Source: a virus
Taxonomy: Duplodnaviria > Heunggongvirae > Uroviricota > Caudoviricetes
IMG/VR virus record: IMGVR_UViG_2690316175_000006
DNA: 10,588 bases
Strand: one strand, 5' to 3'
The number at the start of each line of letters is the position of its first letter. The first letter of the stretch is position 1. The position numbers were made by a program, and so were the translations under genes. The notes under the pieces were generated by a model. The model saw only the letters and a list, made by a program, of their open reading frames with translations. It did not search any database and was not told where the DNA came from. Shown in pieces: positions 8,189 through 9,799 of this stretch.

Positions 8189-8330
8189 AATCCCCCTGTG
8201 CGGAGGGGCAATCAGCGAGTAGGTATATGGGATAATCGCGGATTCAGGTGCTGGTACTGAATTCACCGGGAGGCACCCGGCATCATGCAATGGCACATAG
8301 CGCCACTCTCCAGCCCTCTCCGGAGGGGCT
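8189..8330 (+). repeat. 142-bp structured element, copy A
   Basis: 5' hairpin cccct-gtgcgg-agggg and 3' GC-rich hairpin followed by T-rich tract; near-identical to 9657-9799. Confidence 0.6.
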
Positions 8331-8562
8331 TTTCTGTGCCGGATACATCACAGTTTCTGGAACCTTAGGTACTACAGTATCAGTCAGGGTGCTATATTTT
8401 CAGATGTGATGAAAGCCTGTCAGCAGGCAGGGCGTATCGGAAATGACCCAGTAGAGAAAACGTTGACTCAGATACCGGTGCTGAGTTACCGGGAAACCGG
8501 CATCACATGACCGCTATCCTGAGGTGTACTGGCAATAGCGGACACTACCATTTGTTCTTTTT

Positions 8563-9381
8563 TTAAGCAGCCATCTGATGATATTTTTCCCTGAAGGCTG
8601 CCGGGGAGATATTCCCCAGACGAGAGTGACGACGCTGACGATTGTAGAAAATCTCAATGTATTCCCGTATTACTGAGATGGCTTCATCCCGGTTATTAAA
8701 ACGATAGTGGCTCAGGCTCTCATTTTTCAGCGTTCCCCAGAAGCTTTCCATCGGAGCGTTGTCGTAACAGTTACCTTTACGCGACATTGATGTTTTCAGA
8801 CCAGACTGCTCCTGTATGACCCGGTAATCGTATGCGCAGTACTGTGAACCTCGATCAGAGTGGTGGATTAGCCCGGCAGGTGGGCGCTGGCTCCTGAGCG
8901 CCATAAACAGGGCTTTACCTGTCAGCTCTTTTGTCATGCGCTCTCCCATGGCGTAGCCGACAATTTCGCACGTATAAACATCTTTGATGCCAGCGAGGTA
9001 CAACCATCCCTCCTGTGTGGCAACATACGTCAGGTCCGCCACCCAGACCTGATTTGGTGCTGTAGGAGCGAACGTCTGGTTCAGCAGATTTGGCGCAACT
9101 GGCAGATTGTGGTTCGAGTTCGTAGTCGCTCTGAACTTGCGTTTCTGCTTACAGCGTAGCCTTAGCTCCTTACGAAGACGTGCCAGTCGGTCACGACCAA
9201 CGATGATGCCATTCTCTGCCAGCTCCGTCTGGAGCCGCCGGGTTCCATATGTTTCGCGAGTGCGGATATGTGCCACCTTAATCTCCAGTTTTAGCCGCTC
9301 ATCACTTTGTTTTCTGTCTGAGGGTTCATGCTGTACCCAGTTGTAATAACCGCTCCTGGATACACCAAATACCTGACACAT
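8563..9381 (-). CDS. IS3-family transposase OrfB (DDE/integrase core), expressed as an OrfAB fusion via -1 frameshift
   Basis: 272-aa ORF with HSDRGSQY and CYDNAPMESFW motifs; reading frame continues upstream to the slippery site at 9462-9468. Confidence 0.85.
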   Translation of the reverse strand: MCQVFGVSRSGYYNWVQHEPSDRKQSDERLKLEIKVAHIRTRETYGTRRLQTELAENGIIVGRDRLARLRKELRLRCKQKRKFRATTNSNHNLPVAPNLLNQTFAPTAPNQVWVADLTYVATQEGWLYLAGIKDVYTCEIVGYAMGERMTKELTGKALFMALRSQRPPAGLIHHSDRGSQYCAYDYRVIQEQSGLKTSMSRKGNCYDNAPMESFWGTLKNESLSHYRFNNRDEAISVIREYIEIFYNRQRRHSRLGNISPAAFREKYHQMAA

Positions 9382-9416
9382 CGCTTCAATGGGAAATTGT
9401 TGTCGCCATTGTTCGA

Positions 9417-9656
9417 TTAACGCGTATTTTTCAGCGACTCCTGTGCAAAATACGCTGTTGCTTTTTTTAATATATCTCGCTCAAGGCGAGCTTCATTTAA
9501 CGCCTTACGCAGTTGCAGAATTTCAGATTCCAGTTCAGCCACCGTGCGGGAACCAGGAGTACCGAGCCCTTTTCTGGCGGCGGTAACCCATTGTCCTAAA
9601 GTGCCTTCAGGAAGAGATAATCGGGAAGCGCCTTCACTGATCGAAAGTTGATTTTC
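9417..9656 (-). pseudogene. IS3-family OrfA, N-terminally truncated
   Basis: HTH segment LSISEGASRLSLPEGTLGQWV and leucine-zipper-like C-terminus ending ILKKATAYFAQESLKNTR; about the first 20 codons are missing. Confidence 0.7.
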
Positions 9657-9799
9657 ANTCCCCCTGTGCGGAGGGGCAATCAGCGAGTAGGTATATGGGA
9701 TAATCGCGGATTCAGGTGCTGGTACTGAATTCACCGGGAGGCACCCGGCACCATGCAATGGCACATAGCGCCACTCTCCAGCCCCTCTCCGGAGGGGCT
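9657..9799 (+). repeat. 142-bp structured element, copy B
   Basis: Matches 8189-8330 with one substitution, a one-base C-run difference and one ambiguous base. Confidence 0.6.

Follow-up and report, generated by a model that had tools for sequence, protein, structure and literature searches.

What is the structured element of 142 bp that stands on both sides of an insertion sequence lacking one end in this stretch of viral DNA, and was the arrangement formed in a genome or in an assembly? The question is raised by the window analysed here, that is, by the whole stretch of 10,588 nucleotides, in which two nearly identical copies (A, upstream, and B, downstream) are separated by an IS600. Taken together, the data make it highly probable that the copies represent two paralogous genes for the prophage small RNA STnc100 and that their placement around the IS was produced by scaffolding.

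The repeated element is a member of the STnc100 family

A repeat search of the window aligns 8191-8316 with 9659-9784 at 99% identity, and pairwise alignment extends the identity to about 8189/8191-8330 and 9657/9659-9799, from the TCCCCC hairpin through the end of the terminator stem. This identity is far beyond chance for a window of 10.6 kb, and beyond the repeat the copies diverge completely on both sides. The differences between them are T8283 versus C9751, a CCC versus a CCCC run before the terminator loop, and an N at 9658. Since the region 8000-8519, with copy A, matches 10 S. sonnei assemblies at 100% identity, T8283 and the CCC run are genuine. The hairpins that the original prediction placed at the ends of the element are also found, with CCCCU/AGGGG at 8193-8208 and terminators at 8312-8330 and 9779-9800.

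In an Rfam scan of the whole window, both copies match RF02076 (STnc100), a model of 206 positions, above its gathering score of 47 bits. Copy A is a full-length family member on the plus strand (8152-8341; 123.6 bits, model positions 1-206, E=2e-27). Copy B, on the same strand (9659-9809; 81.6 bits), is present from about model position 38 onward; its alignment spans 9621-9809, and its score is below that of copy A because its model 5' positions fall on IS600 sequence. As written in the window, copy B has neither the promoter block nor the P1 5' strand, as the contig does not include them. The natural unit is therefore one of about 190 nt (8152-8341), as the Rfam model and all homologues reach about 37 nt further in the 5' direction than the repeat; in it, a conserved block resembling a promoter is followed by a domain of three hairpins, closed by an 8-bp helix, and then by an intrinsic terminator. 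Thus, the duplication itself holds, whereas 142 bp is not the length of the unit and is simply the portion of it that is present in copy B. The proposal of a small terminated RNA on the plus strand is borne out, in that the element is the known small RNA STnc100 with its Rho-independent terminator; it belongs to a catalogued family and is not new.

The original prediction had suggested looking for the unit in other genomes, where it turns out to be common: the same 190 nt are carried by 2718 of 5426 complete E. coli genomes, at up to 12 places per genome, and by 282 phage records, mainly of Stx-converting phages. The E. coli and Stx phage homologues score 132-186 bits and lie at the equivalent Q/tRNA/stx-downstream site. 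The slot of STnc100 is the late region of lambda-like prophages, downstream of the Q antiterminator and a tRNA cluster, and the same slot also holds cargo such as stx, nanS-p or iraM. This location is found in the window, where Q (5194-6015) and the tRNAs (7687-8075) are followed by copy A, and the late lambdoid prophage context is also seen in E. coli ATCC 11775 (locus L001), in E. coli 042 (L002) and in phages L030-L033. In the case of ATCC 11775, the element comes after Q, a DNA methyltransferase and a tRNA cluster, and three tandem family members (136, 30 and 161 bits) lie upstream of DUF1737 and holin genes. E. coli 042 has a single member, with a DUF3927 gene on one side and an iraM-like gene on the other, and in phage 2851 and the Stx2a phages the RF02076 match lies directly after stx2B. 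Across STnc100, RefSeq/PGAP annotates a partial 'hypothetical protein' pseudogene in antisense, on the minus strand (L001 3672-3797; L002 3481-3606), which is probably a spurious call on a non-coding RNA gene.

Structure, putative promoter and terminators of the RNA

The consensus structure, computed with RNAalifold on eight homologues, defines a structured core at 8181-8288 on the plus strand and agrees with the Rfam structure line. The core is closed by the 8-bp helix P1, which pairs GCAUGGUG (8181-8188) with CAUCAUGC (8281-8288), and it contains the hairpins P2 (8193-8197 with 8204-8208), P3 (8240-8247 with 8257-8264) and P4 (8266-8270 with 8276-8280), all on the plus strand. Among the eight homologues, compensatory changes affect 6 of 34 predicted pairs, of which five belong to P3 and make up 5 of its 8 predicted pairs (GC/AU three times, GC/UA, UA/CG and AU/GC). 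The T at 8283 of copy A turns one G-C pair of P1 into a G-U pair, and the helix is kept. This long-range closing helix (model positions ~30-37 with ~150-157) is formed in copy A and at the locus of copy B in finished genomes (L004/L010), but not in copy B as written, in which its 5' strand is replaced by IS600 sequence. As single-sequence folding gives unremarkable and uninformative z-scores (-0.5 and -1.1), it is the family model and the covariation that support the structure.

In the consensus, a single-stranded linker joins the hairpin domain to the terminator. The latter, on the plus strand in both cases, consists in copy A of a hairpin and U-tract at 8312-8335 (AGCCCTCTCCGGAGGGGCT TTTCTG; terminator scan and consensus pairs, columns 200-219) and is called by the terminator scan at 9779-9800 in copy B. 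A further intrinsic terminator on the plus strand (8090-8115; GGCTCGCTTTTGCGGGCC followed by T8) stands after tRNA-Arg(tct), just upstream of copy A; given this separate terminator, STnc100 needs a promoter of its own. A conserved TGT-TAAAAG block at 8166-8174 on the plus strand, present as TTTGTTAAAA(A/G)AA in 7 of 7 clear homologues, is a putative extended -10, which would place the 5' end of the RNA near 8180. A strict sigma-70 consensus scan called no promoter upstream of either copy, and a sigma-54 promoter at CTGGCATGGTGAATCC, considered by eye, was dropped since the -12 GC is missing. As modelled, the RNA would have about 155-190 nt, with the 8-bp helix closing the three-hairpin domain, followed by the linker and the Rho-independent terminator.

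Colinearity with finished chromosomes breaks at the three N sites

Apart from A, C, G and T, the window contains only one N at position 1435, 47 N in a row at 7943-7989 and one further N at 9658, and these are exactly the three sites at which colinearity with finished S. sonnei chromosomes is broken. The 'ambiguous base' described earlier at 9658 is thus one of these breaks and not a base-call ambiguity. In BLAST comparisons with S. sonnei loci, the window is identical to L014 over 1-1434 (100%), matches L024 over 1436-3269 (98.7%), returns to L014 over 2848-7936 (L014 2260-7349, 99.6%) and 7996-9657 (L014 7269-8930, 99.8%), and is identical to L004 over 9659-10588 (100%). The three loci are all within the finished chromosome CP104423.1. 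The part 9659-10557 is 100% identical to the S. sonnei iraM loci L004-L009 and L011, and this extends over 9659-10588 in L004/L007. The methyltransferase, the IraM-like protein and a 221-aa ORF of the window have identical proteins in finished S. sonnei chromosomes, where they belong to three separate prophage remnants, at 1.86 Mb, 2.53 Mb and 1.98 Mb of CP104423.1, respectively.

In the same chromosome, the remnant with copy A and IS600 and the remnant with copy B and iraM are about 0.67 Mb apart, with a similar separation in other assemblies. The former comprises Q, the methyltransferase, tRNAs, STnc100, a degenerate STnc100-like element into which IS600 has inserted, then another STnc100, the third of the series, and nanS-p, and the latter Q, tRNAs, DUF3927, STnc100, iraM and DUF1737. 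The single N at 9658, which coincides with a colinearity break, is the join between two contigs, and the junction in the window reads ...GTTGATTTTCA-N-TCCCCCTGTG. In 23 of 23 fetched loci, the sequence before the first 20 nt of copy B is the normal leader (...AAAGAAACTGGCATGGTGAA), and in none of them is it IS600. Immediately downstream of copy B, the prophage cargo is an iraM-like anti-adaptor gene of the PmrD-fold family (9835-10170, minus strand; PF11183), which has an identical counterpart in S. sonnei and a nearly identical one in E. coli 042, annotated there as IraM.

The N-run at 7943-7989 marks a gap in the scaffold, around which tRNA-Arg(tct) has been duplicated artefactually, with 81 nt of L014 used twice. 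This tRNA is found at 7860-7936 and again at 7999-8075, where a single one is present in finished genomes. Of the two, the first shows the G variant together with the 'tattca' flank that belongs to the prophage of the iraM locus, and the second starts with 'cggtattcag' from the same prophage, the contig ends at the N-run carrying 6-10 nt of the paralogous locus. Because of this double use of the 81 nt and the paralogous sequence at the contig ends, the 'fourth tRNA' is also an artefact. The window further contains two hok/sok modules on the plus strand (887-1062 and 2856-3030; sok RF01794, 112 and 118 bits; ORFs 1000-1212 and 2968-3180). As they come from two S. sonnei remnants (L014 and L024) joined at the N at 1435, their proximity is assembly-made. 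Just downstream of the modules there are isrK-like matches on the plus strand (1221-1302 and 3189-3270), which at 25.7 bits are below the gathering score of 50.

IS600 and the degenerate middle element

IS600 occupies 8520-9657 on the minus strand, covering positions 1-1138 of 1264 from the orfB-side end, and matches S. sonnei IS600 at 100% identity. It lacks its last 126 bp because the contig ends there, and not through a demonstrated deletion. Its end at 8520 abuts TCC. Compared with a simple insertion of this IS3-family element, which in finished S. sonnei genomes (L014-16, 18 and 21) is of full length at this site (1264 bp) with a 3-bp TCC target duplication, the window shows only 1138 bp before the contig stops. 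In strain 53G, IS600 is absent at this site.

Among the IS600 copies of the fetched S. sonnei loci L003-L029, 13 have A and 19 have G at the base that follows window position 9657, which is IS600 position 1139. The contig thus stops where the IS600 copies diverge, as expected of a collapsed repeat. Other copy-specific SNPs of IS600 are at window positions 8804, 9155 and 9233; at 9233 the window has the consensus A, as against the T that four of five finished genomes show in their resident copy. Near the end of the window, a DUF1737 gene (10431-10557, plus strand) is cut by another IS600 end at 10558 (10558-10588); this junction is real, because the same truncation, with a 57-aa product, is found in finished S. 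sonnei genomes.

The insertion lies in a degenerate second STnc100-like element, whose 5' part is at 8380-8519 on the plus strand. Its RF02076 match (8380-8568; 21.8 bits, E=0.25) is below the gathering score of 47 bits, and its intact homologue in E. coli ATCC 11775 scores 30.1 bits (L001 3882-4055). IS600 separates this element from its terminator, which follows the IS at L014 9057-9092; in finished S. sonnei genomes the third STnc100 and nanS-p come next. A tandem trio of STnc100-family members is seen in prophages of the S. sonnei/ATCC 11775 type (L014 9057-9360; L001 3882-4330), IS600 having targeted the degenerate middle one. This middle element may or may not be PasD-like.

An assembly join or a recombination event

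Judged from its colinearity with finished chromosomes, the flanking arrangement is almost certainly a scaffolding artefact of a draft Shigella sonnei scaffold in which four contigs were strung together. A contig ending inside IS600, where the copies differ, would have been placed beside a contig starting inside copy B, with the join written as a single N. Assembly, and not recombination, would then have given rise to the truncated IS, to a copy B without its promoter and to the placement of the two copies around the IS. A point against this reading is that the contig ends, with 47 and 31 nt of IS600 at the two edges of the window and the start of the fourth contig at 9659, do not follow one simple k-mer rule, so that the behaviour of the assembler is only partly explained: k=93 would fit the start of the fourth contig and not the other ends. 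The earlier description of two copies flanking a truncated IS is thus a description of the scaffold, rather than of a demonstrated genomic arrangement.

We consider it quite unlikely that the junction is real, in which case IS600-mediated recombination would have fused two prophage remnants, joining IS600 position 1138/1139 to TCCCCCTGTGCGG. An illegitimate deletion from the IS600 interior into the STnc100 leader would have removed the left end of the IS, the DUF3927 region and the promoter of the small RNA, leaving a promoter-less copy B beside a dead IS; an artefact, in contrast, implies that at the first locus a complete IS600 continues into TCCTTCCAGG... and that at the second, copy B is preceded by DUF3927 and the leader. 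IS-driven rearrangements are abundant in Shigella genomes. In the S. sonnei chromosome CP046286.1 (L010), an IS600 in the same orientation lies 423 bp upstream of copy B, and from this background a real deletion of 549 bp, together with IS600-IS600 recombination, could in principle give the sequence of the window, with a microhomology of 1-2 nt (A/AA) possible at the join. However, the join is a single N, as it is at 1435, where two other unrelated loci meet without an IS, and the breakpoint would by chance have to adjoin one of the few copy-variable sites of IS600. Moreover, the two loci are in direct orientation in CP104423.1, so that IS600-IS600 recombination would delete the 0.67 Mb between them.

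The junction was also found nowhere else. It was not detected in complete E. coli genomes, in JGI metagenomes (exact-pattern scan) or among GTDB representatives (exact pattern), the last being a weak test, as there is one genome per species and Shigella may be poorly represented. For a 115-aa ORF spanning the junction, no protein in a collection of 5.8 billion covers the junction: the matches are to ordinary IS600 OrfA only, over at most 74% of the query, and leave the STnc100-derived N-terminus uncovered. The suggestion that copy B served as substrate for a recombination that removed the left end of the IS is not supported by these comparisons: the flanks map 0.67 Mb apart and are joined by one N, finished genomes have an intact site, no more than 1-2 nt are common to IS600 and STnc100 where they meet, and the breakpoint falls one base before the A/G site. 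A wider proposal, of a genuine fusion between the IS600 interior and STnc100 that welded two remnants and, more broadly, of STnc100 genes acting as homology patches for cargo swaps (stx, iraM, nanS), is in our opinion unlikely. In favouring an assembly join, we note that the element is known and its adjacency assembly-made, outcomes that the original prediction had itself allowed for, yet both copies do exist in the genome.

Small RNA, cis-acting module or mobile element

What has been published on other members of the family favours a small RNA acting in trans, and members have been detected by RNA-seq as well as by northern blot (PMC5331693, PMC12711010). In EDL933, 11 STnc100 copies are annotated, most of them transcribed, and STnc100_4 was confirmed by northern blot (PMC5331693); STnc100 was also detected in outer-membrane vesicles of STEC (PMC12370729). 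According to PMC12711010, which cites Tree et al. and a second study, the Hfq-binding small RNA EcOnc27/sRNA103 overlaps an STnc100 member downstream of stx2B in EHEC, and fimZ and espA transcripts rose when it was overexpressed. By analogy, base pairing in trans with the help of Hfq would be the best-supported mechanism for the copies in the window.

It seems very unlikely that the element acts mainly in cis, as a structured terminator or insulator that bounds the cargo slot of the late operon. There it would block read-through in the lysogenic state but yield to polymerase modified by Q, and, being highly conserved, it would in addition offer prophages a homology patch at which to exchange cargo. 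Such a role would fit the strong intrinsic terminator that is always at its end, its position inside the Q-dependent late transcription unit, the occurrence of up to three members in tandem, and the fact that homology between loci of the ATCC 11775 and 042 types begins and ends at the borders of the element, the flanks being unrelated. However, discrete transcripts have been reported (PMC5331693), an RNA bound by Hfq overlaps a member of the family (PMC12711010), the promoter-like block is conserved upstream, after a separate terminator, and the conserved, covarying domain goes well beyond what a terminator needs. As for a small MITE-like mobile element, or a part of IS600 or another IS, inserted twice, the resemblance between the GC-rich palindromic hairpins at the two ends and the abutment of one copy on an IS might suggest it, but we reject it as having hardly any probability, as the conserved unit has about 190-206 nt and not 142, its synteny in prophage late regions is fixed, no target duplication is seen, IS600 copies elsewhere are without it, and the abutment is a scaffold join.

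Significance and comparison with known systems

With STnc100 a catalogued family and the arrangement a product of assembly, the locus carries little weight as a discovery. It serves rather as a caution that a single N in a draft scaffold can mimic IS truncations and local duplications. S. sonnei prophage remnants keep several genes of the STnc100 family, including one that belongs to a tandem array into which IS600 has inserted, and these retained genes may be of interest to researchers of prophage small RNAs.

A related system is EcOnc27/sRNA103 of E. coli O157:H7, an Hfq-binding small RNA located downstream of stx2B and overlapping an STnc100 member in Stx2 phages. The STnc100 copies of these phages are only 68-78% identical to the copies in the window and differ in the variable region; the fimZ and espA targets are not transferable to the latter. 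A 2026 preprint presents STnc100 as a marker of phage origin and a relative of PasD; the PasD1 and PasD2 small RNAs of EPEC E2348/69, found near Q in lambdoid prophages, are reported there to have structure and ancestry in common with STnc100 (bioRxiv 10.64898/2026.05.13.724894). When set against STnc100 (RF02076) itself, copy A agrees in sequence, structure, position, terminator, closing helix and the three hairpins, and nothing substantive differs. In copy B as written, model positions 1-37 are missing, and they are present at its locus in finished genomes.
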